DNA of 64,000 bases, the filler included, from Basidiobolus ranarum (taxonomy: Eukaryota): assembly GCA_040143965.1 (NCBI GenBank). It is 33 parts of 33 records of this genome, joined end to end, with 100 filler letters (N's around TTAATTAATTAA, not from the genome) between each part and the next. Parts side by side here need not be neighbours in the genome. Positions count along the whole stretch, not along the records: positions 35,075 to 36,916 come from JASJQH010004231.1; 32 more parts are not named here. The stretch is one strand, 5' to 3'. Position 1 is the stretch's first letter, and every line of letters starts with the position of its first letter. Positions 1-64,000 of this stretch are shown here, piece by piece. The notes under the pieces were generated by a model. The model was not told the origin of the DNA. It was given only the letters and a program-made list of their open reading frames with translations, and did not search any database. A program made the translations under genes and the position numbers.

Positions 1-26
1 TATATGACTATTTAGTTGAGGGAGAG

Positions 27-372
27 TGTTGAAATTAGCATTGCCTAAGCACCTATATAGTCATATATAGCTTAGTACTTAGTTATCTTATAACTCACTA
101 AGATATTATCAGTTATCCTCAATTGGAATTTACTTAGAATATTTTTACCTACTTAGAGTTCTCAGATATATAGATTTTTCAAACTTGTGCTAAAAGCCCC
201 AAACTTTGCACACATGTTCCTGGGACCTTCCTTAACACATTCTACATGTTATTTTGCCTATATCTTGACAAAACTATAAATGTCAACTTTCTACTCAATA
301 AATCAATAAGTGAAAACCACCAATTCCTCTAATTCTCCAAACCACTTCCAAAGGCTCCCAAATACTTTAACA
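27..372 (+). mobile_element. Copia family-A 3' LTR (346 bp)
   Basis: TGTTGAAATTAG...CTTTAACA termini, preceded by polypurine tract GAGGGAGAG; the same junction follows RNase H at 28883; about 12 copies in the window. Confidence 0.93.
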
Positions 373-3907: not shown

Positions 3908-4598
3908 GATGATGTATTCCATATACCAAATATAGCCAAGAATCCACTCCCAATAAGCTATGCAACAACTCAAGGACTAAATTCTGTGTTCAGCAAGGCT
4001 GGATGCACTATCACAGATCAGAATAATACCAAATTAGCCACTGGAATCAAAACTCAAAACTTATACAAGCTAGAAATCAACATAATGCATTCTGTGCATG
4101 CAAATTAGGCCAAAACTGGTGCAATAAGCTCTCAAATGTGTCATAGAAGATTAGGCCACAATGGGGAACAAGGCCAATCTGTTGCATTTATAGCTGAAGT
4201 GCCAAAGTACCATATGTTGACAGACTAGGTTAAGGTCCTTAGCAATATAGGCATAGCATACAAGGACTGGTAGCACAGTGGTTAGAGCACCTTGCTAGAG
4301 TGAAGGAAGTCACAGGTTCAAATCCTGGCCAGACAAATGGTTCTCCCTGAATAATTGAAAATCAGGCCATATTATCAAAGATTACAAAAAAAGGAGGTTT
4401 GCCAATAGCTAAAATTGGAGCAAACAAATCAAGTCAGCTCTGTTAGAGATCATCAATTTGTGTCTGCACTATTAGTACCCACTAAGGAAGAATCAGAAAT
4501 GTGATACATTGATGCAGGAGCCTCTTAGCATATGTCAAACAAGAAATATTTGTTTTCCAGCTTAGCCCATCCACACTAGGAATGTCTGCTCAATTGAT
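3908..4598 (+). pseudogene. Rearranged Copia pol/gag fragments (GAG-pre-integrase, then zinc knuckle/protease), split by the tRNA-like element
   Basis: HRRLGH motif before 4170; after ~4357 it aligns to the knuckle/protease region at 57400-57590. Confidence 0.8.
4170..4356 (+). mobile_element. tRNA-containing short interspersed repeat, copy 1 (cloverleaf 4264-4336)
   Basis: Matches 35141-35334 and reverse 7548-7711. Confidence 0.85.
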
Positions 4599-4978
4599 TA
4601 TTGGGAAAATATGGGCTGTTTGGAGGAACTTTAGAATAGTGGAGTTGTGAATAGCTTTGTGAGATAGTTATTTATTATCCAGAATTAAGCATTTATACTT
4701 TTTGATAAAAAAATATAGAAAACTAACACTGGGTTTGTGTTCAGAACATCTGTGGGAGTTAAATGAGCTATCTTTGGGGCAAATTGGACAAGTTTGAAAT
4801 TTCCAATTTGGAATTGCTAATTCTCACATTATTCATATATATATATATAATATATGTTCTGACTTCAGCTAAGTGATATGTGACCAAGTAATGTCAACTA
4901 ACTTATATGCAATATATGAAATAGTTAGGTGTATAAAGATAGATATAACAAATATGATAAAGACAATAAACTTCAACA
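4599..4978 (-). mobile_element. Copia family-D 3' LTR
   Basis: Adjacent to polypurine tract (CTCCCACTC on plus) and RNase H; second copy at 42215-42591. Confidence 0.88.
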
Positions 4979-5759
4979 CTCCCACTCAACTAATTATTCA
5001 TATATCTTAATTCTAACTCAAATCTTAATTCTTCAAATTTTGGCTTAGGTAATGGTTTGTTAAGTATGTCAGCAAGCATGTCCTCAGTTGGTCAGTACTG
5101 TAGTTGGACATGCTTATTCTCAATAGCTTCCCTAACAAAGTGATGTTGAATGTCAATGTGCTTACTTCTAGCATGAAATTTGGGATTTTTAGCTAAAGAA
5201 ATACAACTTTGATTATCCTTGAAAATATGGTGGGTGAACTTTGAAAAATGCCCAAGTCTTTAAACAGTTTCCTTAGCCTCATAGCCTCCTTTGTTGTATG
5301 TGATGCTGCCATATATTCTGCTTCTGTTGTTGAAAGTGCTATGGCAGGTTGTTTCTTGCTGTTCCAAGATATGGCTGCTTCACTATAGAGAGAGGTATAT
5401 CCAGTGATAGATCTTCTGTCCTCAATATCACATCCCCAATCTGCATCACTTAGCCCAATGAGATCCTTATTCTGATAAGAATATATGTATCTTAATCCTA
5501 GATCAATTGTTTCCTTCTAATATCTGAAAATCCAGTAAACTGCTGCATAATGCTCAGATCGTGGGTTTTGCACATATTTCATTGTAGTCCGCTCCTTCCA
5601 TTTGAGAGTATCCTTTAGCCACAAGTCTAGCTTTATATCTTTCTACAGACCCATCAGCTTGCTGTTTAACTTTAAACACCCATTTGCATCCAATTGATTT
5701 TTGGGCATCAGGTAACTTAACCAAAGTTTGGGTTTGGTTATATATGAGTGACTGATACT
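4979..5759 (-). pseudogene. Copia RT/RNase H relic with internal deletion
   Basis: SDADWG, ALSTTEAEY, KHIDIQHHF and ADILTK motifs on the minus strand. Confidence 0.92.
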
Positions 5760-5859: not shown

Positions 5860-7547
5860 TAATCACAAGCACAGTCACTGTACAAAGCCACCAGTTGCAC
5901 AAAGCCTGGTGTATAACAACAGTAATAAGTGCACTAAATTGACTTTAGTTTTGCCCATTGAGTCCACTGAGTGTACTTTGCCTCAAAGTTTGGTAACAAT
6001 GCCAAAAGTCAAGATACCATGGAGTTATCACAGTTATGTGACCAGCATGATGTAGGTAGAAATGCAACTTTGGTCAAACCATTAAGTCCAGGCAACTTTG
6101 TGGACTTGCTGCTAGATGTTGACCTTAGTTATTCCAGTACTGATGGTAGTATATCAGAAGTTGAAGAAGAAGATGATGGTTTTATTACGGACTTCTTGTT
6201 ATTGGCAAACAATACTCCACTCATAACACTTACTGTAAAGGAAGCAGCTTTGATTATTCAGGAGCGGAGAGTTCAATCCAATCTTAGGAACCAGGTGTTT
6301 ATTGGTTATCTTACAATTTCACAACAGTTGATTGGCAACTGTTGCTTGCCACAGACCTGGTACAAGTGGAAAACGCTTGTAAGTCATATGACTTACAATC
6401 CTTCAGTAATGAAACTACCTTCATGTCCAAATGGTTGTTTGGCTTTCACCAGTGATCTGAAAAACCTGAGGTCATGTACTGTTTGCACAGAATTGGTAAT
6501 CACTGAATTAGGTAAATATTGTTCATATTTGGCTCACATACCATTGATTCCCCATCTTAAAGTTTTGATGAAATCACCCAAATACAGATCATTGATCAAA
6601 CACCAAAGTACTGACTACAAAGCTGATGGCATTACCAATATACTTGATGGATATCACTACCCAAATCTGAAAATTCAAGGTTTCTTTGAGAACACATAAG
6701 ATCATACATTTGCATTGGCTCAGGATGGTTTCTTACTAAACATATATACCATTGGAAAGGCTTGCTGGCCAATAATTTCAATCAACTCAGTCTCCCTCCT
6801 TCTGAACAGTATAAGAGTTGTAATATTTGATACTATCCATCATATCTGGACCTAAATCACCAGTGCTTATAGATAGCTTCTTGGAGCCTTTGATTGTGGA
6901 ATTTGAACAGGTATCTAATGGGGTTCAGATGGGTGAATATTTTGTTATAGCTATTATCATTGTATGTATAGGTGACACTCCTGCCATCAGTAAACTTGGA
7001 GGTTTTTGCAGGCACAATGCACTATCTTGCTGTAGATTTTGTCAAATTAATGGAGTCTACTCAATCAGGCATACACATTACTACTATCCAAATACAAAAT
7101 TAAACTCCATGATATTACTGTCAAGAGCCCGGTCAGATTTCAACATGATCACTGATAGCAATTCACCAAATAGTCAGTCTAACATCAAACTTGGTATTAG
7201 CTGTAGGCCTAAGATTATATTGCTAAAGGGGATCAGCTGGAGCCAGAGCTTCCCATTAGGTTCTACGCACTTACTATTAAACAATATTCCAATACTACTT
7301 ACTTAGCTATATAGTGGAAAATACAACATTATGAGCCATTCAAGGTAGGATCAAAGTTTTAATCAAACTGGAAAATGCTTGAAAACATCAAGATACCATC
7401 ATATTTTACCAGGACTCCCATCATTATCCACTTAGCTTGGCATTTATTCAGGTGCAAAGACTGAAAGTATTGAATTTGTGAATATTCAAGTGGAATGTTG
7501 AAAAGATTTCTGCCTGATATAGTATTGGTGCCATTGGGAGTTGTTTG
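5860..7547 (+). mobile_element. CACTA/EnSpm (Tnp2/Transposase_21-like) transposase pseudogene
   Basis: CPNGCLAF..CxxC, CWPII, ISGPKSP..IDSFLEPL, GDTPAISKL and CRFC motifs; stops and frameshifts. Confidence 0.88.
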
Positions 7548-7711
7548 TATTGAAATTATTTAGGGAGAAATATTGGTCTGGCCAGGATTTGAACCTGGGA
7601 CCTCCTTCACTCTAGCAAGGTGCTCTAACCACTGAGCTACCAGTCATTGTATGCTATGCCTATATTGCTAGGGAACCTTAACCTAGTCTGTCAATGTATG
7701 GTACTTTGGCA
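7548..7711 (-). mobile_element. tRNA-containing repeat, copy 2 (cloverleaf 7574-7646), abutting CACTA transposase
   Basis: Reverse complement of copy 3; cut by contig end. Confidence 0.85.
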
Positions 7712-7811
7712 NNNNNNNNNNNNNNNNNNNNNNNNNNNNNNNNNNNNNNNNNNNNTTAATTAATTAANNNNNNNNNNNNNNNNNNNNNNNNNNNNNNNNN
7801 NNNNNNNNNNN

Positions 7812-8072
7812 TAATTCTATGCCTATGAGAATTGTAAGCTAATGGTTCGATCAACGTTTGGATTTAAAGATGGAGAAGACCCAGATATTGCTGGGAGATT
7901 TCAACAAAAGCATCCTGATTCCTACGGCAAAGGCCATGTGGAAACAAGAAGGCATGCGAGTATTCTTTAGAGGATTGCTTCCAGCCCTCGTTGGAGTATT
8001 TCCATTTGCAGCGATTGATCTTTCCGTCTTTGAGTCGCTGAAGCACTCTTCCAACAATACTGACTCAATATT
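7812..8072 (+). pseudogene. Ca-dependent mitochondrial carrier (SCaMC/Sal1-like) pseudogene fragment
   Basis: FYAYENCK..DIAGRF, then in another frame EGMRVFFRGLLPALVGVFPFAAIDLSVFESLK; the intervening carrier helix is missing; interrupted by an LTR. Confidence 0.78.
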
Positions 8073-8383
8073 TGTTGAAGTATTTTGGGAGTTTGTTGGA
8101 AGTGGATTTTCGAACTAGAAGAATTGGTGGTTTTCACTTATTGATTTATTGAGTAGAAAATTGATATTAATAGTTTTGTCAAGAGGTAAACAAACGTATA
8201 GAATGTGTTAAGGAAGGGCCTGGGAACATGTGTGCAAAGTTTGGGGCTTCTAGGACAAGTTCTCAAAATCTCCCAAGTAAATTCCTCTTGAGAATAGTGG
8301 GTGATACCTTAGTTCAATATGGAATAACTAAATACTAAGCCATATATGACTATATAGATGTTTAGGCCATGTTAATTTCAACA
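8073..8383 (-). mobile_element. Solo Copia family-A LTR with 5-bp TSD ATATT
   Basis: ATATT at 8068-8072 and 8384-8388; TG...CA ends. Confidence 0.93.
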
Positions 8384-9502
8384 ATATTAACATCAACTAC
8401 CAATGTTGTTTCAGGTAGGATACTCCTACAATACCCTGAATAAACACTCCAATTGATAAGCACCAGTTCCGAACCGGATACAAGTGTATTTAGTGCTGTT
8501 ACTGATTGAATTAGAGGAAGGATCAACTGGACCTATACTCCTTTTAATTGGAACGAATATCGATCATAATAACCATTCACATACATCGAAGGAAGCTCTT
8601 ATCCTTAAGCTAACTCAAGTTAGATCGCTAAGTTGATAATCTCAACAGGTCTACACGTTTTCACTCACTTGTCAAAGGTCGCATTCCCCTTCAATAGCTA
8701 TATATATAATAGATGAAGCTAATTTAGAAAGAGATTGGACGTTGGGAATTTCTATGTCCATCCTGCAAGCAAAGGCAACATTATATTAATTTGCTACTTC
8801 AGTGCGAATATCCAATGACTGGGTTATGCATTGGTGTTATTGAAGTTGATGACCAAATTTCTCTATTTGGCAACTGTTCTATTGAACCCCAATGATCTAT
8901 TGGAACCATTGGCCATCGACATGGGAGAATCCTTTACCAGACCACCGAGCGAGACAATGTATTGCGTCTATCCTATGTCTATTTCTTGTCTGGAGTAATC
9001 AGACCTTGAAGCCGCTGTCATATTCTCCAACACAATCTACCAATACATTAGTGATTCATTGATAGTCTCTCCCCTGAAGATTCTTCCCATTCGAACTGTT
9101 TAGTACGGAATCATGCAATAGAACAGAGGATTTGCTTATCTAAGATGTGATGAGTATCATGGTCTTCGATCCAATCAGACATTCCAATTTATGTACTGTT
9201 TTAGACATCGAATCAAATGCTGGTGAAACCTTATGGCTCCTCGATAATCGTAGAACAAATCAGGGGCAAGTTCAAAGTTGGTTCAAAAGTAGGGTTTTTA
9301 CATAGAATATTATTCAGTGAGTGAAGGTATTAAGGTCAAAAGTAGATATCATACATATGCGTGTTCACACTTTGGTTATTCTCGGCACAGTAGTTGTTGG
9401 ATATATCAAGGGGGGGGGTTATGAATACCTGAAAATTAAATGAGCCATGGGAGCATGGAGATGGAATGGCAAAACTAAACTATATATCGCGTCATTGGTG
9501 GT

Positions 9503-11035: not shown

Positions 11036-11382
11036 TGTTAAAGTATTTGGGAGCCTGTTGGAAGTGGTTTGAGAATTTGAGGAATTGGTGGTTTTCACTT
11101 ATTGATTTATTGAGTAGGAAGTTGACATTTATACTTTTGTCAAGATATAAGCAAACTAGCAGGTAGAATGTGTTTAGGAAGGTCCCAAGAACATGTGTGC
11201 AAAGTTTGGGGCTTCTAGCACAGGTTTGAAAAATCTATATATCTGAGAACTTCTAAGTTGGTGTCAATATTCTGAGTAAATTCCTCATGAGAATAATGGG
11301 TAATATCTTAGTGAAATATAAGATAACTAAGTACTAAGCTATATATGACTATATAGGTGTTTAGGCAATGCTAATTTCAACA
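11036..11382 (-). mobile_element. Full Copia family-A LTR, no matching TSD
   Basis: TGTTAAAG...TTTCAACA on plus; flanks CTAGG and GATGT differ. Confidence 0.92.
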
Positions 11383-11713: not shown

Positions 11714-12859
11714 TAATACTATGTATCTCAATCTTTCTCACCAAGAAGTCTGTCTTGCAGCTTTCCTAGAAATATTCTCAGATTATCACACTAACAAACT
11801 AGTCCAAGTTATAGTTGTACTTACTCTGTGTCCATGGATTGGGTTTTGTTGCTGTTATTGTGCTCAAACAAAGCAAAACCCATGAGCACATTGAAAAGAG
11901 CCATTTGTGGGAACATTAATATACTCTGGAGTCTCCATATCCCATTACATTACATCTATCAATGTTTTTGCTGATGCACTGTTAATCAGATTAGCATATG
12001 ATAATACTGAAAATTTCACACAAAGGATCATTTCACCACAGGTGCGCTCCATTGGGAACTCTTGGAATGTATAACAAGTGTTTTAATCTCTAAGTATTGT
12101 GAAAGATGCAGCAGGGAATGTATTGAATTCCACAATAGATTCAGTCTATCTCCTCTAAAGCTGCAATAAAGCTTTCATATCCAATTAAAAAATCTTAACA
12201 CAGTTGCTCTATCAGCCTGAGATCTGCCAATGTGAGACAACGCCATAAAAGTATATTATCAATATCCACAATGAGCTGCCAATGTTGCCAATACTTATCA
12301 GGCAGAAATCTTTTCAAGATTCCACTTGAATACAGACAATTCCAATGCTTCCAGTCTTTGCATTTGAATAAATGCTTACATGAGTGAATATTGATGGGAG
12401 TCCTGGTAAAAATGATGGTATCTTGATGTTTTCATGCTTCTTCCTAATCAATTAAAACTTTGATCCTATCTCAAATGTCTGATTCCTATTGAATTATTCA
12501 CTATATAGCTGAGTATGTATTATTGGATTGTTGTTGAATAGTAAGTGCATAGTGCCTAAAGGAAAACTCTGACTCACGCTGAACCCACTTAGCAATATAA
12601 TCTTAGGCTTATGGTCAATTCTAAGTTTGATGCTTGACTGACTATTTGGTGAATAAATATCAGTGAGCTTGTTGAAATCTGACTAGGCTCTAGATAGTAA
12701 AATCATGTAATTTAGTGTTGTATTTAGTGAGTAGTAATGTATATGCCCAATAGAGTAAACTCAATTGATTTGACAAGATCTTGGGCAAGATAGTAGATTG
12801 TGTCCACAAAAACCTTCAGGTTTATTGAAGGCAGGAATGTCACCAATCTGTACAATGAT
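11714..12859 (-). mobile_element. CACTA transposase pseudogene
   Basis: Reverse match to 6960-7540 and 23680-24120 (SIHSLLHL, EFPMERTCG). Confidence 0.88.
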
Positions 12860-13663: not shown

Positions 13664-15513
13664 ATGCATTACCAGCAAACTAATGTTGGAAAATTGCTAA
13701 ACATCTAAAGTTTTTAATAGCACTGACACTTGGCAAATAGCTGACTCTTGTTACCATTCACAATGAGAATAAGCTCTTGTATTTTGGCAAATTTCTGTAA
13801 AGATTTCAGCCAATAAATTCCCAACTTGCAGGCAACAAATGTCCAACCACTAATAGATATATCATTGTTTAAATAGATTACCCAATGGCTAAAACAATAA
13901 CATTGCAAATCTTGATCTTTCTCACCAAGAAGTCTGTCTTGCAGCTTTCCTCAAAATACCATCAGATTATCACACAAGCAAATTAGTCCAAATGATAGAG
14001 ATACTTACTCTGTGTCCATGGATTGGGCTTTGTTGCTGTTATTGTGCTGAAACAATGCAAAACCCGTGAGCACACTGAAAAGAGCCCTTTATTGGCAGGT
14101 TAATATACTCTGTAGTCTACTTAAACCATTGCACAACATCCATCACTGAATTTGCTGATATATTGTTAATCTGTTTAACATATGGTAATACAGATGATTT
14201 CACACAAAGCATCAATTCAACACAGGTGTGCTCCATTGGTAACTCCCAAAATGTATAGCAAGGGCCTATAGTCTCTAAGCATGGTGAAAGATGCAGCAGG
14301 GAATGTATTGATAGCAGCATAGATTCAGTCTATCTTCATCAAGTCTGCAATAAAGTTTTTTGTATCCAATTATAAAATCTTTGCATAGTCATTGTATCTG
14401 CCTGAGATCTGTCAATGTGAGTTGACACCATAAGAATATATTAACAACATCAACAAACAACTGCCAATCTTGCCAATACTAATCAGGTAGAAATCTTTTC
14501 AAAATTCCACTTGAATTTATACAAATCCAATACTTCCAGTCTTTGCATTTGAATAAATGCCCAGATGAGTAGATATTGATGGAAGTCCTGGCAAAATATG
14601 ATGGTATCTTGATGTTTTCAAGCATTTTCCCAATAGATTCAAACTTTGATCCTATCCCAAATGGCTCATTGATATTGAGTTTTCTAATATATACCTGAAT
14701 AGGTAGTATTGGAATGTTGTTGAATAGTAAGTGCATATTTGCTAATGGGAAACTCTGGCTCCAGCTGATCCCCTTTAGCAATACAATCTTAAGCTTGCAG
14801 CTAATACCAATTCTGATGTTAGACTGACTATTTAGTGAATTGATATCAGTGATAATATTGAAATCTCACCCAGCTTTTGACAGTAAAATCATGCAATTTA
14901 GTGTTGTACTTGAACAGTAGTAATGCATATGCCTAATAGAGCAAACTCCATTGATTTGACAGAATCTGCAGCAAGATAGTGCAGTGTGCCTGCAAAAACC
15001 TCCAAGTTTACTAATGCCAGGAGTGTCATCAATACAGACAATGATATTAGCTTTATTAAAATATTCACCCATCCAAACCCCATTAGATACCCATTTAAAT
15101 TCCTCAATCAAAGGCTCCACAAAGCTATCTATATGCACTGGTGATTTAGGTCCAGATATCATTGTTAGTTTTGAAATATTATGACTCTTCTATCACTCAG
15201 AAGGAGAAAGATTCAAGTTGATTAAAATTATTGGTCAGCAAGCCTTTCCAATAGTATATTTGTTTAGTGAGAAACCAACCAGAGCCAATGAAAATGCATG
15301 ATCATAAGTGTTGTCAAAGAAACATTAACTTTTCAGATTCTGGTAGTGATATCCATCAGGTATATTGGTAATACCATCAGCTTTATGGTGAGGTAGTTTT
15401 ATTACTGAAGGATTATAAGTCATACAAGTGACAAGGGTTTTCCACTTGTACCAGGTTTGTGGCAAGCAACAGTTGCCAACCAACTGTAGTAAAACTGTAA
15501 GAAAACCAATAAA
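13664..15513 (-). mobile_element. CACTA transposase pseudogene plus 3' arm
   Basis: ORFs 14117-14320, 14479-14781 and 14866-15162 are homologous to 5971-7306 and 23663-24013. Confidence 0.88.
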
Positions 15514-16002: not shown

Positions 16003-16910
16003 TGTTAAAGTATTTAGGAGCATCTTTGAAGTGGTTTGGAGAATTAGAGGAATTGGTGGTTTTCATTTATTGATCTATTGAGTAGAGAGTTGACATTTAT
16101 AGTTTTGTCAAGATGTAAGCAAACTAATGTGTAGAATGTGTTAAGGAAGGTCCCAGGAACATGTGTGCAAAGTGTGGGGCTTCTTTGAGAAATCTATATA
16201 TCTGAGAACTTCTAAGTTGGTGAAAATATTCCTACTAAATTCTGATTGAGAATAATGGATAATATCTTTGTGAATTATAGAATAACTAAGTACTAAGCTA
16301 TATATGACTATATAGGTGTTTAGGCAATGCTAATTTTAACACTCTCCCTCTACTAAATTGTCATATAAACTGATCCTAATAAAGGTCTATATTTCTCAAA
16401 TTTCTGTCTAGCTGATGGTTTGGTTAATATATCAGCAATCATGTCTTCTGTAGAGCAATAAGTTAATTCAATAAACTTATTCTCCGTAGTCTCTCTAATG
16501 AAGTGGTGTCTAATATCTGTATGTTTGCTTCAATTATGAAACATGGGATTTTTAGCCAATTTGATATAGCTTTAATTACATTAAAATATTGTAGTTGGTA
16601 ACTTTTGAGAATAGCCTAATTCTGTTCAAAGTTTTCTTAACCATATTGCTGCTATTGTTGCTTCACAGGCAGCTATGTATTCAGCTTCTGTTGTTGAAAC
16701 CGCAACAGTAGGTTGTTTATTTAGATTCCAAGAAATAGTTTCATTAGAGCAAAGAAATAAGTATCCTGTTTTAGATCTTGTGTCTTCAATATCTCTTGCC
16801 CAATTTGCATCTGAATATCCCATCAGATCAAAGTTTGACCCAGAATATGTGTATTTTAGGCACAGATCCACAGTACCTTTCCAATATCTCAAAATCCACT
16901 TAACTGCTAT
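16003..16910 (-). mobile_element. Copia family-A 3' end: RT/RNase H relic, polypurine tract and LTR (16003-16341)
   Basis: GYSDANWA and STTEAEY motifs; tract CTCTCCCTC at 16342. Confidence 0.93.
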
Positions 16911-21460: not shown

Positions 21461-22380
21461 AAGAAAATTTGACTTTTCAGATTCTGGTAGTGATATCCAT
21501 CAAGGATATTGGTAATATTATCAGCTTTATGGTGAGTACGTTGGTATTGGATCTATGATCTATATTTGGTTGTTTTCATCAAAACTTCAAGACAGGGAAT
21601 CAATGGTATGTAAGCCAAATGTGAGCAATATTTATCTGATTCAGTGATTACTAATTTTGTGCAAACAGTACATGACTTCAGGCTTTGCAGATCATCGGTG
21701 AAAGCCAAACAACCATTTGGACATGAAGGTAGTTTGATTACTGAAGGATTATAAGTCTTATGATTGACAAGTGTTTTCCACTTGTACCAGGTCTGTGGCA
21801 AGCAACCGTTGCCAATCAACTCTGGTTAAGGGTAAGAAAACTTATAAACACCTGGTTGCTAACATTGGATTGAACTCTCCACTCTTCAAAAATCAAAGCT
21901 GCTTCCTTTACAGTAAGTGTTATGAGTGGACTAATGTTTACCAATAACAAACAGTCCATAACAAAGCCATTGTCTTCTTCTTCAATTTCTGATATACAAC
22001 CATCAGTACTGGAATTACCAAGGTCAACATCTAGCAGCAAGTCCTCAAAGTTGTCTGGACTTACTGGTTTGACCAAAGTTGCATTTCTACCTACATCATT
22101 CTTGTCATATAACTCTGGTAACTCCATGATATCTTGACTTTTGGCAGTTTAACCAAAACTTTGAGGCAAAGTACAGTCAGTGGACCCAATGGGCAAAACT
22201 AAAGTCAACTTAGTGCACTTATTACTGCTGTTATACACCAGGCTTTGTGCAGCTGGTGGCATTGTACAGTGACAATGCTTATGATTATTTTTTTTATGAG
22301 GCCTCCAGCTTTCATAGCACAAGAATTTGCAACAATAATAGCAGGGCTTCTCTAAAGGTATGTGTTGCAGCATGTGAAGG
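21461..22380 (-). mobile_element. CACTA transposase 5' region
   Basis: Homologous to 5860-6700. Confidence 0.88.
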
Positions 22381-25353: not shown

Positions 25354-26242
25354 GGGCATTAACGAATTTAACACTTTGCATGGCATCGACTGCCATGTTG
25401 GCGAAGAAATCGCTATCACTAAAGAGAGATGAGTGAGAAGTCGAATTGGGAAGAAATAACATATTTTGATACTTGGTGAATTTATCATGTTCACCAGAAA
25501 TTGTCTAAAAATCTTACCTTCCGATAATTTTACTTGACATACTGGTCTTGGCAACGTTGATCAAAGAATCACGTCCAAGTGCATCGACCTTGGTGGTCAT
25601 CTGGTCGGCAATGAATTTACACGCCTCTTTACTAGCTAACCTGTAGCCAGAAATAATGGTAGTAGGGTGTATCTTATTTTTAACCAATTCGTTGGCTCTC
25701 TTTAAAAGTTCAGCAGCAATAATGACTACAGAAGTAGTACCGTCACCGACTTCTTTATCTTGCTGTTGAGCTAGCTCTACTAATACTTTTCCGGCTGGGT
25801 GTTCAACTTCGAGTAAATTTAATATGGTAGCACCATCGTTAGAAATAGTGACATCCTAAAATTAATACTTGGTTTAGCAAAATGGGACTCTTTTAAGGTA
25901 TTTCTACATAGTCTTCTATTTTACTACTTACACCAATATCATCTACCATCATTTTGTCCAAACCAACGGGACCAAGGGAACTTTTGACGATGTTGGCGAT
26001 GGAAACGGCGGCCATAACTAAAACGCGAACAAAACAAAGTCAATTTTATTAGAAGGGAACTTTTTATGTCACCATTAGGTATAAACTATCAGGAATGTTC
26101 ACCAGATTGCGATGATTACAAGTGCCTTTGTATAGAAAATAGTGTATAGAATGACTTTCATACCATTTTGACTTCTTACGTCTTGTCCGGAGAAACGTTC
26201 ACCTCCGAGGAATAAAGCTGGGTTATGTTCCTTTGCATACAT
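25354..26242 (-). CDS. TCP1: T-complex protein 1 subunit alpha, 5' part, 4 exons
   Basis: MYAKEHNPALFLGGERFSGQDVRSQN / SSLGPVGLDKMMVDDIG / DVTISNDGATIL..EVGDGTTSVVIIAAELLKRANELVKNKIHPT; GT-AG introns. Confidence 0.96.
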
Positions 26243-33131: not shown

Positions 33132-34974
33132 TTTTGGGCATTAGACACTCAGGTTTTATTGATTTGAATAAACTCCTATGTATAGTTTGCTATGAAATAG
33201 AACGAGTTGATGTGCTTAGAGCATGACAAACATGCCTGTTAAGCATGGGTGAAAACTTCAGGTGATTTGGCGAGGTTTTGAGAAAATAATGAAAATTGGT
33301 AAAGGTGATTTAATTTGTATATCTATCAATTAGAGTAATAAACAAACATTTTTCAATGGCAGAATAGAGTGCTAAGTGCTCAGATTACAAGTCAACTAAC
33401 TATTAAATAATGAGTTGCTATTTGTATATTTACAACATTTCCACTCAACTTATCATTTTGTACTTCTGTTAAACCTGACTTATATCTCAATAATTCAAAT
33501 TGTTCTTAAGTAAAGGTTTAGTTATGATGTCAGCAATCATTTCTTCAGTAGGGCAACAGGCAAGTTCAACTATATCATTCTCTATTACTTCTCTAACAAA
33601 ATGATGCCTAATATACATACATTTTGTTTAAGCATGAAATGTGGGGTTTTTAGCTAATGAAATACAACTTTGATTATCTTCAGATTCATTAATAGCATAT
33701 TATTGCATGTATCCTAAGACTGTAAGCAACTTCCTTAACCACATAGCTACATGTGTAGTAGCTGCAACAGCCATATACTCTGCTTCAGTAATGGAAAGTG
33801 CTATGGTTGGTTACTTCTGACTATTCCAAGTTATGGCTCCATTACCATGGAGAAAAGTGTACTCAGCTGTTGATCTTCTATCATCAAGGTTTCTTCACCA
33901 ATCTGCATCACTATAGCCTTCAAAGTTCTGTGCATCAGGAGTGCCAGAGTATTCTAGAATGAGATCTAATGTTCCTGTTAAATACCAGAATACTTGTTTT
34001 ACTGCTGTTTTGTGCTCAAATGCTGGATTTTTTAGATATGGGCTGACAGTTCCCACTGCCACAGTAATGTCTGAACATGTTCCAAAAATTGTGTACATTA
34101 AACTACCCACAATGGATTGCTAAGGGAGCTCCTGGCTTATATTTGAGTCTTTTTGGGCCAAATTGGATGAAATTATGATTAATTTCACATTGGACCCATT
34201 GATGTTGCCACAGGCTTGCTATTCTCAATGTTGAAGTATTTTAGGGTGTCTAGGAAGTATCTGGACTGAGTCAGCAGGATTCTCTGATGAGGTGTATATC
34301 TTTTGATTTGGATTCCAACAAAATAATTAAATGAACCCATATCAGTCATCTGAAATTTTTTTGATAAGCCTCTTTTTGTGTGATAGAGTGTTTAAAGTCA
34401 TCCACATATAGTGCCAAGATAAGGATCCTGTTTCTGGTTTTTTTGATGTAAATACTGTAGTCTGCTATGCATTTTTGGAATTCTAGTGTTTCTTGATAGG
34501 TATATATCTTATGGCACAATTACCTGGGTACTTTCTTGAGTCCATAGAGCAATTGTTGCAATTTACAGATCATATCAGGGTGTTATAGATCAACATATCC
34601 ATCTGGATGCTCCATATAGATCATTTCTAGTAGATTTTCATTGAGAAAAGCCATTTTGATGACCATTTGATGTAAATCAAGGTTGTGGATGGCTGAGAGT
34701 GCCAGGATTGATCAAGTGAACTCAACTTAGCTACTGCAGTAATATTTTCATTAACAGCAATTCCTGAGTCTGGAATAACCTTTTGCAACTAATCTTGCTT
34801 TGTACCATTTACGGTTCCATCAGCTTTGTTTTATGAGTATGTAGACCTATTTGCAGCATAAAGGCTTTCTCCCGGGTAGTAGAGGACTTAAATCTCACAT
34901 TTAACTGTGCTGAAGTGAAGAAAACTCATCAGACATTGTTATTTCCCATAAATTTAAGTTTGGACACTCTGCAT
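33132..34974 (-). mobile_element. Copia family-E RT/RNase H relic and 3' LTR (33132-33437)
   Basis: [20 protein letters not shown] and EAEY motifs; polypurine tract next to the LTR. Confidence 0.92.
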
Positions 34975-35140
34975 NNNNNNNNNNNNNNNNNNNNNNNNNN
35001 NNNNNNNNNNNNNNNNNNTTAATTAATTAANNNNNNNNNNNNNNNNNNNNNNNNNNNNNNNNNNNNNNNNNNNNGATACAAGCAGTAATTCCCAAAGAGG
35101 AAAATATGGAGTATGGTGACTGTATCTGAACATAAAGTCT

Positions 35141-35334
35141 AAGGCCAATCAGTTGCTTGTATAGCTGAAATGCCAAAGTACCATAGATTGACAGACTAGG
35201 TTAAGGTTCCCTAGCAATATAGGCATAGCATAAAAGGACTGGTAGCTCAGTGGTTAGAGCACCTTGCTAGAGTGAAGGAGGTCCCAGGTTCAAATCCTGG
35301 CCAGACCAATATTCCTCCCTAAATAATTTCAATA
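35141..35334 (+). mobile_element. tRNA-containing repeat, copy 3
   Basis: Three dispersed copies with conserved flanks, each in a different transposon context. Confidence 0.87.
35236..35308 (+). tRNA. tRNA-like pseudogene (73 nt, AGA at the anticodon position, short variable loop)
   Basis: GGACTGG-TA-GCTC-AGTGGTTA-GAGC-A-CCTTG-CTAGAGT-GAAGG-AGGTC-CCAGG-TTCAAAT-CCTGG-CCAGACC-A; A and B boxes intact; A3:A70 and G31:G39 mismatches. Confidence 0.8.
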
Positions 35335-36231
35335 AATGGCACATCTGGATATAACTCATCTTCCAAAATCAACAGCAGGCTACAAGTACATTGTAGACTG
35401 CAGAGATAACTTCTCTAGATGGGTCAAAGCAAGAATGTTAAGAAAAACTACAGCTTAAAATGTTGCTTTATTTCTGGAGCAAGATATATTCCTTTGCAAT
35501 GGCAATATTCACAACATTGTCACTGACAATGGAGAATGTGGATGTCAAGAAGTCATTTATATAGCTAGAAAGTATGGTGTGAAACTTATCCATACTTGTC
35601 CATATCATCCTCAAGGAAATGCACCAGTTGAAAGTGGACATGGAGCTTTAATAGAAACACTTGCAAAAAGTGCTATATTTGAACTACAAAAATGGCCAAA
35701 CTATTTCTTTGCTGCAATATGGGCAGACAGAATTACTACCAAGAGAAGTACTGGTTATTCTCCATTCTATCTCATATATGGGTATGAAGCAATACTACCA
35801 ATTGATATTAAGCAAGAAAATTTGCTTAAATTTCAATGGAAAAGAAACATGACAACAGAAGAATTATTTGAAACTAGAATTGAACAAATTCTTTAACTGC
35901 ACAAATGCCTCAAAGTTGCAGCACATAACCTAAAGGTTAGTAGAAGTCAAGCAAAAGAATAAGCAGACAAAGAGAGAACACTAAGAAAAGAAAAACTTAG
36001 AGTTGGTGATCTAGTTTTATTACATAGTACAAAATTAGATACACAATGGTCACAAAAGCTCAATATGAAATGGACAGGTCCATTCTGTATTCAAAAGGTT
36101 TACAACAATGGAGCTTACTCCATTTCAGAACTTGGCAACACACCATTAGCTAATACTTAACATGGTAGCCATCTAAAATTATTCCATCCAAGAATATAAT
36201 GAGGGCATTGTATATCAACTCAGGGGAGACT
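35335..36231 (+). pseudogene. Ty3/Gypsy integrase relic with GPY/F module and polypurine tract
   Basis: DNFSRW, IVTDNG, YHPQGNAPVE, TGYSPFYLIYG and KWTGPF; AGGGGAGA before the LTR. Confidence 0.92.
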
Positions 36232-36916
36232 TGTAGTGTTGGAAATATTCCAATCATATCTTGTACATAATAATCAGGAAGAATAATATCTGTTGCTATC
36301 TTATAATATTTTACATATCAAGAAAAAGAACAGAATATGCAATCACTCATAGTCACATCAATACTTGACTTGTTACAGTAATTTAAGCTGCAATCAAACA
36401 CTCCTGAATTAGATCTTTACAACCATGCAAGAATCATAAGATTTGATCAAATATTAGTGGAGCTACTACCATTTCAAAATTGCCAACACAAAAATCAACA
36501 CTAGCATATATTCAGAACAAAGGAATTCAGGACCTCAAGATGCTCACAAAATTAGTGCTAACTTTTGAACCAGTCAATGGAATCTCTTGAAACTTTGCAC
36601 AGAGCTGTGACACTACTTAATGCTGATGTGTTCAAAGTTTCAAGGGCGCAGCTGTTTATTAGTGATTTTATTGGCACTTTGATGCTAAGCCACCCACTCT
36701 TGGCATTTATTCTCAGCCACCAATTCAAAGCATTTATTCGAAGCTGTGTCTTTATATAAGCAACCCTCCCCACTATTGAAAAAGCTTCTAGCCTTAGCAC
36801 CATCCAAAACTGCACCATATTCTTTATCCTTTCCTTAACTAGATATTCTACCATGTATCATAGTAAGATAATAAAGATTCCTATTGCAACTCAATTAGGC
36901 TTGACTATTGAAGATT
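36232..36916 (+). mobile_element. Gypsy family-C 3' LTR (5' part)
   Basis: Starts TGTAGTGT after the polypurine tract; 36385-36916 matches reverse 41677-42210. Confidence 0.8.
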
Positions 36917-42842: not shown

Positions 42843-43604
42843 GCTACTCCTAAAACTGTCGCTTGTATTCTTTCATCTACCTTGATTGTTCTTCAATCAT
42901 TCGAGGTACACCCAACAATCATTCATTACGCATTGAACCAAATTTTCTACTATATCTCCGCTGAGATGTTCAACCGTGTAATGATTACCAAAGAATATTG
43001 TTGCCGAGCAAAAGCAATGCAAATTCGTATGAATATCTCCTCTATAGAGGACTGGATACACAGCAATCGTTTACCACAAGTTTTAATTCAACATTTCCAT
43101 TCGTTAATTCAGCTTCTTCAGCTTTTACAATGCATCTCTGGTCTCTCTGATCTGACCGAGCTGCTTGTCACCATCAAAGAGTTCTCTGGGCTGAATCTCC
43201 TTCAATTTTATCGGATTACCAACAACTATCGTTACGAGGTTGGGGAAAACCAACTCCCAGAAGAAATTACTCAGTATTTGGAGCAAGTAGCTAAGGATAC
43301 TTGCAGTCTTCATACGCGCACTTCAATGGAGACAGATAGGGAAGGACACCGAACGCCTAAAGTTCGGGAAGAGAATGTCGATATTTTACCCACGCACGAA
43401 CATAATCAGCCTACTACATCTAATACGCAGTCTGGAGATATGGAAGAACTAATGGACCCCACACACCTTCTTCCATTTGCTATCCCCACTAGCTCCGAAA
43501 TGCTTAGTGGTTGGGGTAGAAGCGAGAAGGAGTATGTACCTTATCTGCCAGACGCTTTCCTTATGGAATTAGATGAGGAATTGCGGGAAAGATTTGAAGC
43601 CTAA
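42843..43604 (+). CDS. DIL (dilute) domain protein, C-terminal exon
   Basis: QIFYYISAEMFNRVM..YCCRAKAMQIRMNISSIEDW and LIQLLQLLQ...YRYEVGE are DIL-domain signatures. Confidence 0.87.
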   Translation, partial: ATPKTVACILSSTLIVLQSFEVHPTIIHYALNQIFYYISAEMFNRVMITKEYCCRAKAMQIRMNISSIEDWIHSNRLPQVLIQHFHSLIQLLQLLQCISGLSDLTELLVTIKEFSGLNLLQFYRITNNYRYEVGENQLPEEITQYLEQVAKDTCSLHTRTSMETDREGHRTPKVREENVDILPTHEHNQPTTSNTQSGDMEELMDPTHLLPFAIPTSSEMLSGWGRSEKEYVPYLPDAFLMELDEELRERFEA

Positions 43605-45192: not shown

Positions 45193-46168
45193 TTATTCTC
45201 TCGTATGATCCATATACCATTCCTTAGGAATAATCGCTATTTGCCGACCTAGGGTACCAAAGCAGATGCATGAAGAGTAAATGAGGCACTAGCAAAGGTC
45301 AGGTTAGTTAATGAATTGATTTATCTTAGTTAAAATGCTTGATGAGACTAACCGGTGCTGCGGCACGGAATCCATAGAAATCCGGATTGGTAAAACTGAA
45401 AATGAATTTAGTCTATTATTCCAGTCTATCATGTGTTAAATATCACCTACTGATAAACTCCGTAGTGTACTTGCGCATAGATAAACAGAGTGCCAACAAC
45501 TGTGGAGAGGAAGGCAATTCCAAATCCATGCACAGTACGATCAAAGAAGAACCAAAGTCCCACAGCAATTAACGCCAAAATTCCAGCAAGTTCCATAGTA
45601 TTGGATAGCGAAAGTTTCTGTTATTTTCCAAAAAATTAGTACAACGAAACTGACCTATAATAAATATAGTATCAGTACATACCGAGGCAGCCAAGTTCAC
45701 ACCAAGAAAACCCCCAAGTGAGCTAATAAAGTACCAAATGGTGAGTACTCAATGAAAACCACGAATATTCAGAAGGACAATCACGGCTTACCGAATAGCG
45801 TTAGACCAGTCGTCATAAAACATATGCGTGCTCTTGGAGTAGTAGGTATCTAACCAAGAATAAGCGGTTCCCAATAATACAGCCAAGAAACCCGATAGAA
45901 CAGAGGTTCGCGTAGACACCATAAGACGTGTAACGGGGTCTGGGTATTGAGTTATGTTATGTTGTGCATCTAGTTGGTCATTGATAAGGGCAAATGAAAA
46001 ACCAATAAAGAACAGTATGAAGGCGCGAATTGTGTAATGTAACGAGGAGCTAGTAGAGGAACTCCGTAGATAACAGTTGTATGTATCTTCGGTGATAGCC
46101 ACTTTTTCTAGAGGAAAAGCCCGGTCAAACATACCGTGGGGGTTACTGACAGTAGATAACGGGGACAT
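45193..46168 (-). CDS. INSIG-family sterol-regulatory membrane protein, multi-exon
   Basis: DDWSNAIR / SLGGFLGVNLAAS / ALIAVGLWFFFDRT..G / PDF / GTLGRQIA; GT-AG introns. Confidence 0.85.
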
Positions 46169-46719
46169 ATCTCAAGAAATAGGAAAAATAGGTTAAGAGT
46201 GGTTTAGGGTAAAGTCGAACAAAGCAATGGCCAGATAGTTTATAGAAAAGCAGATGCGTGGAAAACGGGTTGGAAGCAGGAAAGAATAAGATTATAAATG
46301 CAAGCTGTAAAAAAACCTCAACAGATATCTATGATACAATACGTTCAAGATGCAGCTACGAATCAATCAGGAGTATACAGGGAGTCAAGTATGGAGAATT
46401 TTGGAAACGTTAGGCGATGTACAGAACTTTTATAAGGTTATGAAAATGAGGCAAGGGAATTTAGGCTTTGATCCAGATCTAGTTGCCACATCACCCAAAT
46501 AAATTAGCGGGATTGATTTAATAATAACGTCACCCAATAAAGCTCAACCTTGATTATCAGAAAGTCCTTTTTATTTTTCATCCAAGGATTGATGTTTCCC
46601 TCTAATTTCAAAGGTTTGTNNNNNNNNNNNNNNNNNNNNNNNNNNNNNNNNNNNNNNNNNNNNTTAATTAATTAANNNNNNNNNNNNNNNNNNNNNNNNN
46701 NNNNNNNNNNNNNNNNNNN

Positions 46720-53362: not shown

Positions 53363-53709
53363 TGCTATAGTATTTGGGACCCTGTTGGAAGTGGTTTTGA
53401 AAATTGGAGGAATTGTTGGTTTTCACTTACTGATTTATTGAGTAGAAAGTTCACATTTATAGTTTTGTGAAGACATAAACAAAAAAAGATGTAGAATGTG
53501 TTAAGGAAGGTCCCAGGAACATGTGTACAGGGGTTGGGGCTTCTAGCACAAGCTTGAAAAATCCAGATATCTGAGAACTTCTAAATTGGTAAAAATATTC
53601 CAAGTGCATTCTAATTGGGAATAATGGATAATATCTTAGTGAATTATAAGATAGCTAGGTACTAAGCTATATATGACTATATAGGTATTTAGGCAAAGCA
53701 ATTTCAATA
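53363..53709 (-). mobile_element. Copia family-A LTR with polypurine tract upstream and PBS/gag downstream
   Basis: CTCTTCCTC at 53710 plus the pol 3' end on one side; leader and gag on the other. Confidence 0.9.
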
Positions 53710-54177
53710 CTCTTCCTCAATCAAACAGTGATATAGACTATTCCTGCTAAAGGTCTAAATTGTGGACTACCTATCATATATTGATAAGGGAATTAGGGCT
53801 CTCAATTGCACTTTTTGAGCCATATTTGGCTGATTTTCATATTTTATGATGGGATTTTTGACTAGTTTCACACCTGGATCCAGGGGGGTTGCTACTGGCT
53901 TGCAGTACTCCATCCTGTAAACTCTGAGAATGTCTGAGATGTATTGAGATTGATTCAGAGTAGTTGATTTGCTCAATATATCTGTATGGACCTGCAGGCC
54001 TAAAAAATATGTATGTTCACCTAAATCGGTCATCTTGAATTGGACTAATAGATCCCTTTTGATGTTCCTGAGAGCTTCATCATTCTTGATAGCTTTAATC
54101 AGGTCATCTACATATAAGGCAAGTATCACCTTATTGTCCTTATCTGCCTTAAATTAGATCCCAAAATCCACCTTAGT
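53710..54177 (-). pseudogene. Copia RT fragment joined by deletion to the pol 3' end
   Basis: LALYVDDL and MTDLGE (ORF 53767-54129). Confidence 0.88.
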
Positions 54178-55611: not shown

Positions 55612-56235
55612 TCACAAGTTACTGCGAGGTCTAATTTCATTTTCAAAGTACTCCTTAACGCCTTTACGGATGTCCAATGCACAACCATACGAAAGAGTGT
55701 AGCCTGAGCCTCCGTGACCATAATTATGGAAAATCTTGGGGTTTTTATCATCTTGTCCTACACGGGGTTCATCACGGAATGGTCGAATTCCAACGCGATA
55801 ATAGTAATCAGTGAATTCGGCTTTGGCTAAATCAGGATAGAGATTGACACATCCAGCCTTCATTCTCTCCAGGTATTGATGCTCATTTTCATTCCACTCT
55901 AATGTTTCTTCTCCCATTTGGGCATAACCGCCAAGAATAAGGATATCGTCATTTCTAGGTACGATGAACTCGAATCTTCCTTCATCGGCCTTTCTCTTCT
56001 CTTCAGCAGTAGCATTGGCATCAGCATCCCGTTGAGAGATGGAGATACAGCTTTCAATTTTCCTGAACCGTTTTCCATCATTCTTGGCATGGATCAGGAT
56101 ACCACGGAGGGGCTTCATTTTTTCATCGCCACATAGCTCTCTTGAAGTCATACCAGTACAGTTGATGATGATATCAGCCTTGAATCGCTTCAATAAATCA
56201 GGAGCTTCCTCGTGAAGAGTGTCTTCAACGACAGC
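55612..56235 (-). CDS. D-amino-acid oxidase family protein, last exon
   Basis: IINCTG, RG.L, GIRPFR and HNYGHGGSGYTLSYGCA; intron acceptor near 56236. Confidence 0.9.
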   Translation of the reverse strand, partial: AVVEDTLHEEAPDLLKRFKADIIINCTGMTSRELCGDEKMKPLRGILIHAKNDGKRFRKIESCISISQRDADANATAEEKRKADEGRFEFIVPRNDDILILGGYAQMGEETLEWNENEHQYLERMKAGCVNLYPDLAKAEFTDYYYRVGIRPFRDEPRVGQDDKNPKIFHNYGHGGSGYTLSYGCALDIRKGVKEYFENEIRPRSNL

Positions 56236-56402
56236 ATACTACGGAAAAGAGCATGAATATGACCAAACGGCGACGAAATAAGATTTTGGGGTTAAAAAGT
56301 CGNNNNNNNNNNNNNNNNNNNNNNNNNNNNNNNNNNNNNNNNNNNNTTAATTAATTAANNNNNNNNNNNNNNNNNNNNNNNNNNNNNNNNNNNNNNNNNN
56401 NN

Positions 56403-63499: not shown

Positions 63500-64000
63500 T
63501 GTTGAAGTTAGTGTTGCCTAAACACCAATATACTCATATATAATTTAGTACTTAGCTATCTTATAATTCACTAAGATAATATCAATTATTCTTCATTGGA
63601 ACTTACTTAGAATATTTTTACCAACTTAGAAGTTCTCAGATATATAGATTTTTCTGACTTGTGCTAGAAGCTCCAAACTTTGCACACATGTTCCTGGGAC
63701 CTCCCTTAACACATTTTACACATTAGTTTGCTTACATCTTGACCAAACTATATATGTCAGCTTTCAACTCAATAAATCAATAAGTGAAAACCACCAATTC
63801 CTCTAATTCTCCAAACCACCTTCAACAGGCTCCCAAATACTTTAACAACTGGTGAGCCCCAAGCTTGCACTCTCTGTAATGTCTACTTCTCAAATCTATG
63901 GAACTTTTCCCTCTTCTGAAAAATTGGATGGAACCAATTATCAAATTTGGAAAATTAAAATGAAAATGCTGCTGCAAGAAAAGGACTTTGGGACACTGTT
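63500..64000 (+). mobile_element. Copia family-A 5' LTR (63500-63847), PBS and start of gag (ATG 63879)
   Basis: TGTTG...TAACA; MSTSQIYGTFPSSEKLDGTNYQIWKIKMKMLL. Confidence 0.93.

Follow-up and report, generated by a model that had tools for sequence, protein, structure and literature searches.

A probable Helenus-type LTR family carrying a tRNA-like module in Basidiobolus ranarum

Introduction

Helenus (TRIMp3) elements, first described in 2024, are non-autonomous LTR retrotransposons that bear a tRNA-like sequence (Kojima 2024, Biology 13:119, PMC10886601). As set out in the sections of that report used here, each element has two LTRs, and the short stretch between them contains a primer-binding site and a polypurine tract, the whole measuring 311-1263 bp; fungal members have 5-bp target-site duplications and are apparently mobilised by Copia. 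In the same sections, fungal Helenus is reported from Pucciniales and three Agaricomycetes only. The screen was seeded from Repbase and extended to relatives only, so that early-diverging fungi were not systematically examined in it (PMC10886601).

We inspected ~55 fungal Helenus LTR consensi from the supplementary Data S1 of that report. Nearly all of them start with TGT and have a leader of tens to ~200 nt, a tRNA-like module in sense orientation, and a tail of 20-45 nt that mostly ends in CA; four (LTR-1_PGr, LTR-1_PSt, Helenus-1_MAec and Helenus-3_MLP) end in CAATA (PMC10886601). Section 3.5 gives the A-box pattern TRGCY...YGG for Helenus and GGTTC as conserved in its LTRs, and inflated tRNA-Ser-AGA gene counts in Table 2 are explained as Helenus LTRs, with a disagreement over isotype described (PMC10886601). 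In plants, the Cassandra TRIMs carry a 5S rRNA-derived sequence in their LTR (as summarised in PMC10886601).

Here we describe a ~190-bp repeat unit from Basidiobolus ranarum (GenBank assembly GCA_040143965.1), found in a stretch of 64,000 nucleotides, filler included, that we refer to as the window. The initial annotation of this DNA, made from the sequence alone, had called the unit a 'non-canonical' element derived from a small RNA, either a leader-first SINE or a tRNA-bearing LTR/TRIM that uses a Copia integrase. Our analysis points to a probable Helenus-type (TRIMp3-like) LTR family, unreported in this fungal lineage as far as the sections used of PMC10886601 extend. The label 'non-canonical' overstates its novelty, since the architecture itself was published in 2024.

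Results

The window is composed of 33 contigs of ~1.85-1.94 kb each, arranged from longest to shortest and joined by linkers of the form N44-TTAATTAATTAA-N44 (e.g. 1855-1954 and 7712-7811; 64 runs of 44 N), and has a GC content of 35.7%. Because these contigs are separate, the three copies of the unit are unlinked and not neighbours, and any reading that uses distance or order between contigs is void. The copies lie in the contigs at 3908-5759 (copy 1), 5860-7711 (copy 2) and 35075-36916 (copy 3) and are 91-98% identical. A blastn search of 34801-35700 against the window gave 7711-7548 (97.6% over 164 nt, E 6e-77) as one relative of copy 3, 4170-4356 (91.0% over 188 nt, E 5e-71) as the other, and none besides. 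When the copies were combined into an nhmmer profile, no fourth one was retrieved from the window, the next matches having E values of 0.77-9.4. Both searches recovered the three copies on the strands and at the positions given in the initial annotation.

Copy 3 (35141-35334, + strand), the best preserved by blastn, nhmmer and alignment, is 194 nt long, of which the first 10 nt form a 5' stub and the rest an LTR-like body. The stub, AAGGCCAATC (35141-35150, +), lies 5' of the LTR-like start and is common to copies 1 and 3; it occurs in the window only at 4170-4179 and 35141-35150, and is not purine-rich. The body opens with an 85-nt, U3-like leader (35151-35235, +) that begins AGTTGC in copy 3, compared with TGTTGC at 4180 in copy 1. 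It continues with a 73-nt tRNA-like module (35236-35308, +) and closes with a 26-nt tail (35309-35334, +) ending CTCCCTAAATAATTTCAATA, whose sequence is close to the 3' end of LTR-A, a resident Copia LTR treated below. The tail terminates in TTTCAATA, and copies 2 and 3 have a common end, TAATTTCAATA, i.e. CAATA.

Copy 1 (4170-4356, +) is ~9% diverged, carries its tRNA-like module at 4264-4336, and has its last ~6 nt diverged or missing. Copy 2 (7548-7711, -), with its module at 7574-7646 and its 3' junction in a CACTA relic, lacks the 5' 30 nt; it stops at 7711 because the contig ends there, and this is not a biological truncation. Relative to copy 3, copy 1 differs at 8/84 positions of the leader, 4/73 of the tRNA-like part and 8/26 of the tail, and copy 2 at 2/65, 1/73 and 1/26, respectively, so that divergence is spread roughly evenly over the unit. 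Alignment of the copies upheld the conserved 5' leader and ~26-nt tail that had been proposed, together with the start shared by copies 1 and 3 and the end shared by copies 2 and 3.

ARAGORN called the module as tRNA-Ser(aga) in every copy (4264-4336, +; 7574-7646, -; 35236-35308, +). With the Rfam tRNA model, for which the gathering score is 29 bits, the copies scored 34.9 (copy 1), 49.7 (copy 2) and 58.6 (copy 3), and a permissive Rfam scan of the whole window revealed no tRNA-like sequence beyond these three. In the cmscan alignments, the variable loop is 5 nt long and two stem mismatches, A3:A70 and G31:G39, recur in all three copies; copies 1 and 2 have others in addition. An A-box-like motif, TAGCTCAGTGG, can be read from the sequence at 35243-35253 (+), and a B-box-like motif, GGTTCAAATCC, at 35287-35297 (+); the T-run that follows the tRNA-like part is only two or three T long in the three copies. 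The 73-nt cloverleaf with AGA at the anticodon position, its short variable loop and two common mismatches, and the recognisable Pol III boxes had all been noted before, and each was reproduced here.

A tRNA-Ser has a long variable arm. Neither this arm nor intact stems are found in the unit, which has the 5-nt loop and mismatches in every copy. The module most likely represents a retained internal RNA polymerase III promoter (A and B boxes) rather than a working tRNA-Ser, judging from these features of its sequence. We also considered whether the leader is a second, decayed tRNA, as in a dimeric SINE. This idea was rejected: the score of the leader-tRNA local alignment was reached by 262/2000 shuffles for copy 3 and by 953/2000 for copy 1, and the leader had no match in Rfam at E<=10.

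The flanks of the copies were compared with paralogous sequences elsewhere in the window. At the 3' junction of copy 2, two paralogs of the CACTA relic (~14453 and ~12268) continue without the unit, placing the 3' end of the unit at ...AATAATTTCAAT(A). At the 5' junction of copy 1, two Copia paralogs (~56999 and ~46835) continue into integrase, again without the unit, and place its 5' end at (AAG)GCCAATC. On the evidence of these CACTA and Copia paralogs, the unit is located at insertion-type junctions.

Domain scans also agreed with the earlier placing of the copies beside Copia, CACTA and Gypsy relics. Upstream of copy 1 are a Copia Pol_BBD and a pre-integrase region (..CHRRLGHNGEQ), fused to the common 10-nt stub; its 3' flank holds a Copia zinc knuckle and retropepsin, which in an intact paralog lie upstream of the pre-integrase part. 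Because the 3' flank of copy 1 does not continue its 5' flank, either the junction is a rearrangement or a nested insertion, or assembly from short reads has misrouted the contig through the repeat. The neighbour of copy 2 is a CACTA element with a Transposase_21 domain at 6824-7303, and copy 3 adjoins the relic of a Gypsy-type integrase (35336-35893) that has one in-frame stop and a weak rve match. Among the ORFs of at least 70 aa, 77/115 were scanned for Pfam domains and 38 were left out; Copia domains were frequent among the ORFs scanned, and no LINE-type (RVT_1-type) reverse transcriptase was found among them.

Around copy 3 we found no target-site duplication, the best flank-to-flank alignment being reached by 1290/3000 shuffles, in keeping with the earlier remark that none is visible. 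One candidate pair, ATCTGAACATAA / ATCTGGATATAA, was discarded as its 10/12 match is at chance level by shuffling. For copy 1 the flanking sequence is rearranged, and the contig of copy 2 stops short of its 5' side. Were the copies fragments of 3' LTRs, the contig of copy 3 would not reach the 5' duplicate.

The CACTA-type (Transposase_21) sequences in the window form a set of paralogs that are 80-89% identical (5860-7548, 12268-12859, 14453-15392 and 21461-22287). A 242-aa ORF of this element has a single database relative, a hypothetical protein of B. ranarum. At 8373-8400, an LTR-A end adjoins the same CACTA region (compared with 14453 and 12268), ~15 nt from the point at which copy 2 is inserted in the paralog; this proximity is possibly an insertion hot spot, possibly a coincidence.

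LTR-A is the 339-bp LTR of a resident Copia. It is represented at 16003-16341 (-), where it runs from TGTT(G/A)AAATTAGC to CTCC(C/T)AAATACTTTAACA and is preceded by the purine tract GAGGGAGAG, and by further copies at 10-372 (+), 11036-11382 (-), 63500-63847 (+), 53363-53718 (-) and others; 11 LTR-A 3' ends lie within edit distance 3 in the window. The purine tract precedes LTR-A, as the 3' LTR, in two copies. In the contig at 52533-54367, a primer-binding-like stretch and the ORF of a Copia gag come after LTR-A. The full order there is RVT_2 (53770-54153, -), LTR-A (53718-53363, -) and Copia gag (53204-52899, -): the reverse transcriptase end of one Copia gives way to another Copia's 5' LTR and gag, in a nested or truncated arrangement. 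The primer-binding-like stretch after the 5' LTR is GGTCACAAGCCCTGAGC or ACTGGTGAGCCCCAAGC and recalls, by eye, the anticodon-loop type of primer-binding site known from fungal Copia and Helenus.

The LTR-A 3' end, CTCCCAAATACTTTAACA, and the end of the unit, CTCCCTAAATAATTTCAATA, are separated by an edit distance of 4 of 18, and in copies 2 and 3 the match finishes exactly on the last base; the resemblance covers the terminal 18-20 nt of the unit. Matches of this quality to the LTR-A end arise 6.55 +/- 2.8 times per shuffled window (~5e-5 per position), and it is therefore the exact-terminus position alone that makes the likeness notable. As the comparison was chosen after looking, this sequence likeness would be supportive rather than decisive. 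The initial annotation had already remarked that the unit ends close to the LTR-A terminus. Its 11-mer, TAATTTCAACA, makes a weak case when taken alone (12 matches with <=1 mismatch in the window, versus 4.94 expected); the 18-mer comparison is somewhat better. LTR-A and the unit (copy 1) both begin TGTTG. In other respects they differ: LTR-A has no tRNA-like part, is nearly twice as long, is otherwise unrelated in sequence, and has a clear purine tract, which the unit lacks.

We compared the unit by eye with these ~55 fungal Helenus LTR consensi, and with Data S1 by k-mer look-up (PMC10886601). If the LTR proper is taken to run from TGTTGC (4180; AGTTGC at 35151) to TTTCAATA, as this comparison assumes, the unit follows the Helenus plan described there: a TGTTGC start (copy 1), an 85-nt leader, a 73-nt tRNA-like module in sense orientation in the 3' half, and a 26-nt tail. 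Its A-box (TAGCT...TGG) and B-box (GGTTC) fit the published pattern, and its Ser-AGA isotype call disagrees with its structure (5-nt variable loop, two stem mismatches), as reported for Helenus (PMC10886601). A tRNA-derived sequence with A and B boxes inside an LTR, as in Helenus, is present, provided that the unit really is an LTR. Set against termini of the TG...CA type, the unit has TGTTGC in copy 1 and AGTTGC in copy 3, the CAATA end in copies 2 and 3, and ten common nucleotides outside the TG.

At the level of sequence, a 20-mer of the T-arm, GAGGTCCCAGGTTCAAATCC, is identical in the LTRs of two Cronartium families, Helenus-4_CroRib and Helenus-16_CroRib (PMC10886601, Data S1). None of ten 9-19-mers from the leader, anticodon arm and tail was found in Data S1, in a look-up that may miss line-wrapped k-mers, and the unit is thus not one of the Helenus families listed there. 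Sequence likeness to the listed families is thus confined to the tRNA-like part and could reflect descent from similar tRNAs. The initial annotation had set its proposal against a match to a catalogued SINE or Helenus family; what we found, within Data S1, is agreement in kind, that is, in layout, but not with any listed family.

The unit also departs from the listed Helenus elements in several ways. Its host, Basidiobolus, is outside the Pucciniales and three Agaricomycetes named in the sections used of PMC10886601; copies 1 and 3 have the ten extra nucleotides 5' of TGTTG; and, unlike many of the consensi in Data S1, the unit has no T4 run after its tRNA-like part. No paired units were found in the window, whose contigs are ~1.9 kb long, with the nhmmer profile or the permissive Rfam scan, and no primer-binding site or polypurine tract is visible with the unit in these contigs. 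The commonest fungal Helenus primer-binding motif (12 nt) had 0 matches in the window at <=2 mismatches, versus 2.8 expected. As read here, the unit follows the principle of Cassandra (as summarised in PMC10886601), in which the LTR of a miniature element includes a piece of a small-RNA gene and, with it, a Pol III promoter; in Cassandra the piece is 5S instead of tRNA, and the hosts are plants.

Exact 19-20-mers of the unit gave 0 matches in metagenome contigs and 0 in prokaryote genome contigs. A single viral-contig match to a 20-mer was dismissed as chance, the contig being a GC-rich phage without a tRNA. A literature search returned no follow-up of Helenus in early-diverging fungi and nothing relevant on Basidiobolus transposons.

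Discussion

We consider it moderately probable that the unit is the LTR of a small LTR retroelement of the Helenus (TRIMp3) kind, mobilised by Copia enzymes. The LTR would be ~184 nt long, from a TGTTG start to a CAATA end, with a tRNA-derived module in sense orientation in its 3' half. By analogy with the Helenus family, this module would drive transcription of the element, a resident Copia would supply reverse transcriptase and integrase, and the integrase would recognise LTR ends of the unit that mimic those of Copia itself. The three copies would be LTR remnants nested in other transposons. Copies 1 and 3, with the same 10 nt before the LTR start, may be fragments of a 3' LTR plus stub rather than clean solo LTRs, and the stub AAGGCCAATC may be the last bases of the internal region; such fragments would also explain the missing duplication. 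On one alternative reading of the stub, the LTR starts further 5': in copy 3 a purine-rich stretch leads up to TGTATC at 35118, and copy 1 would be a truncated one.

Several observations stand against the Helenus-type reading. Neither paired units nor a primer-binding site or polypurine tract are visible in contigs of ~1.9 kb, and copy 3 has no 5-bp target-site duplication around it. The 10 nt upstream of TGTTG are not purine-rich and are therefore unlike a polypurine tract, and copy 3 has AGTTG, not TGTTG. The 4-of-18 match to LTR-A recurs in shuffled windows at the rate given above. Likeness to the families listed in Data S1 is confined to the tRNA-like part, the host is outside the fungal range reported in the sections used, and the T-run after the tRNA-like part is only two or three T (PMC10886601).

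The unit might instead be the LTR of a protein-coding, or recently coding, Copia and not of a miniature TRIM, which we regard as unlikely. On this view, copy 1 would belong to a Copia with an internal deletion, of which it is the 3' end: pre-integrase, the last 10 nt of the internal region and the 3' LTR, all nested in the gag of another Copia. This accounts for the Pol_BBD and pre-integrase coding sequence fused to the stub upstream of copy 1; the downstream flank (zinc knuckle and retropepsin) comes from a different part of a Copia, so that one deletion and one nested insertion would suffice, and the Copia that flanks copy 1 is not of the LTR-A family. Kojima's statement that 'not a few' Repbase LTRs contain tRNA-like parts is in line with it, but the autonomous partners of Helenus are argued in the same sections to use Pol II promoters (PMC10886601). 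The basis is, moreover, a single junction, in short-read contigs that may mis-thread a 190-bp repeat, and copy 1 may thus have flanks from two different places. The unit (184 nt) is also short compared with LTR-A (339 nt). A related conjecture, which we hold to be quite doubtful, sees in copy 1 a Helenus-type element near its birth in an early-diverging fungus: Copia coding sequence (gag, protease, pre-integrase) would be joined through the 10-nt stub to an LTR with a Pol III tRNA-like promoter, the result being either a Copia that codes for protein and has LTRs of Pol III type, or a recent derivative of one by deletion. Copies 1 and 3 would in that case be 3'-LTR-plus-stub fragments at microhomologies without target-site duplication, which suggests capture of incomplete cDNA rather than integrase action.

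We also regard it as quite unlikely that the unit is a SINE of tRNA origin, or that a longer non-LTR retroposon has left its common 3' end at each site; in either case copying would be by target-primed reverse transcription with variable 5' truncation, and the leader would be part of a longer transcript. SINE2 elements have a 5' tRNA head, an A-rich, simple-repeat or LINE-derived tail, and variable target-site duplications. The unit resembles them as a short, dispersed, non-coding element whose tRNA-related module has intact A and B boxes, and its common 3' end and the short microhomologies at 5' junctions (AAG in copy 1) fit such an origin; however, no 5' tRNA head, no tail of those types and no variable duplications were seen. 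In the unit the tRNA-like part comes after 85-95 nt of conserved leader, which a type-2 Pol III promoter would omit, as it starts transcription just upstream of the tRNA-like part. The leader is not a second degenerate tRNA, by the shuffling and Rfam results above. The copies end in TTTCAATA with no poly(A) or simple-repeat tail, the ends of the unit look like LTR ends, and copy 3 has no target-site duplication. The 77/115 ORFs scanned contain no LINE reverse transcriptase, and a partner LINE elsewhere in the genome is possible. Kojima's proposal that Helenus itself arose from SINE2 insertions into LTRs counts in favour of the SINE reading (PMC10886601). Between the alternatives in the initial annotation, an LTR/TRIM using a Copia integrase is favoured by the Helenus layout and the LTR-A-like 3' end, and the leader-first SINE found no positive support. 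Very unlikely is a tRNA pseudogene spread with its flanks by DNA-level events (transposon capture, segmental duplication or assembly chimerism) and not as a self-defined mobile unit. Only three copies are visible, all in repeat-rich short contigs, and the flanks of copy 1 are rearranged relative to intact Copia, as this would have it; yet the unit keeps the same boundaries within a few bases in three different flanking contexts, and has LTR-like ends, and its density of three per 61 kb implies that it is abundant. That the loci are working tRNA genes with conserved flanks is extremely improbable: the 58.6 bits of copy 3 on the Rfam tRNA model would agree with it, but the variable loop is only 5 nt long beside an AGA (Ser) anticodon, all copies have mismatches at A3:A70 and G31:G39, with more in copies 1 and 2, and every copy is inside transposon relics.

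If confirmed, the Helenus-type reading would broaden the host range of tRNA-bearing LTR elements (Helenus, TRIMp3), so far rusts and a few mushrooms, to include Zoopagomycota. Such a range would favour either an old origin among fungi or several independent ones. The unit opens no new mechanism. Its practical consequence concerns genome annotation: units of this type inflate tRNA gene counts, here through false tRNA-Ser(AGA) calls, and masking them is advisable.

Apart from transposons, the window contains fragments of host genes. An exon-like ORF of 113 aa (25517-25855, -) is a fragment of CCT1 (TCP-1 alpha), with 98% identity to Basidiobolus meristosporus, 90% to B. ranarum and 86-94% to most other fungi among the matches listed, a few odd top-scoring rows aside. 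This match is the best clue to the host; with the B. ranarum relative of the CACTA ORF, it identifies a fungus and speaks against both a plant and a rust, and it was given more weight than the plant-dominated Atlas neighbours of two ORFs mentioned below. Further fragments, as long uninterrupted ORFs, encode a DIL domain (42843-43601, +), an FAD-dependent oxidoreductase (DAO; 55615-56238, -), INSIG (45791-46171, -) and a mitochondrial carrier (7843-8115, +). The Atlas neighbours of the DIL ORF, and of a Copia integrase ORF, are mostly Streptophyta clusters.
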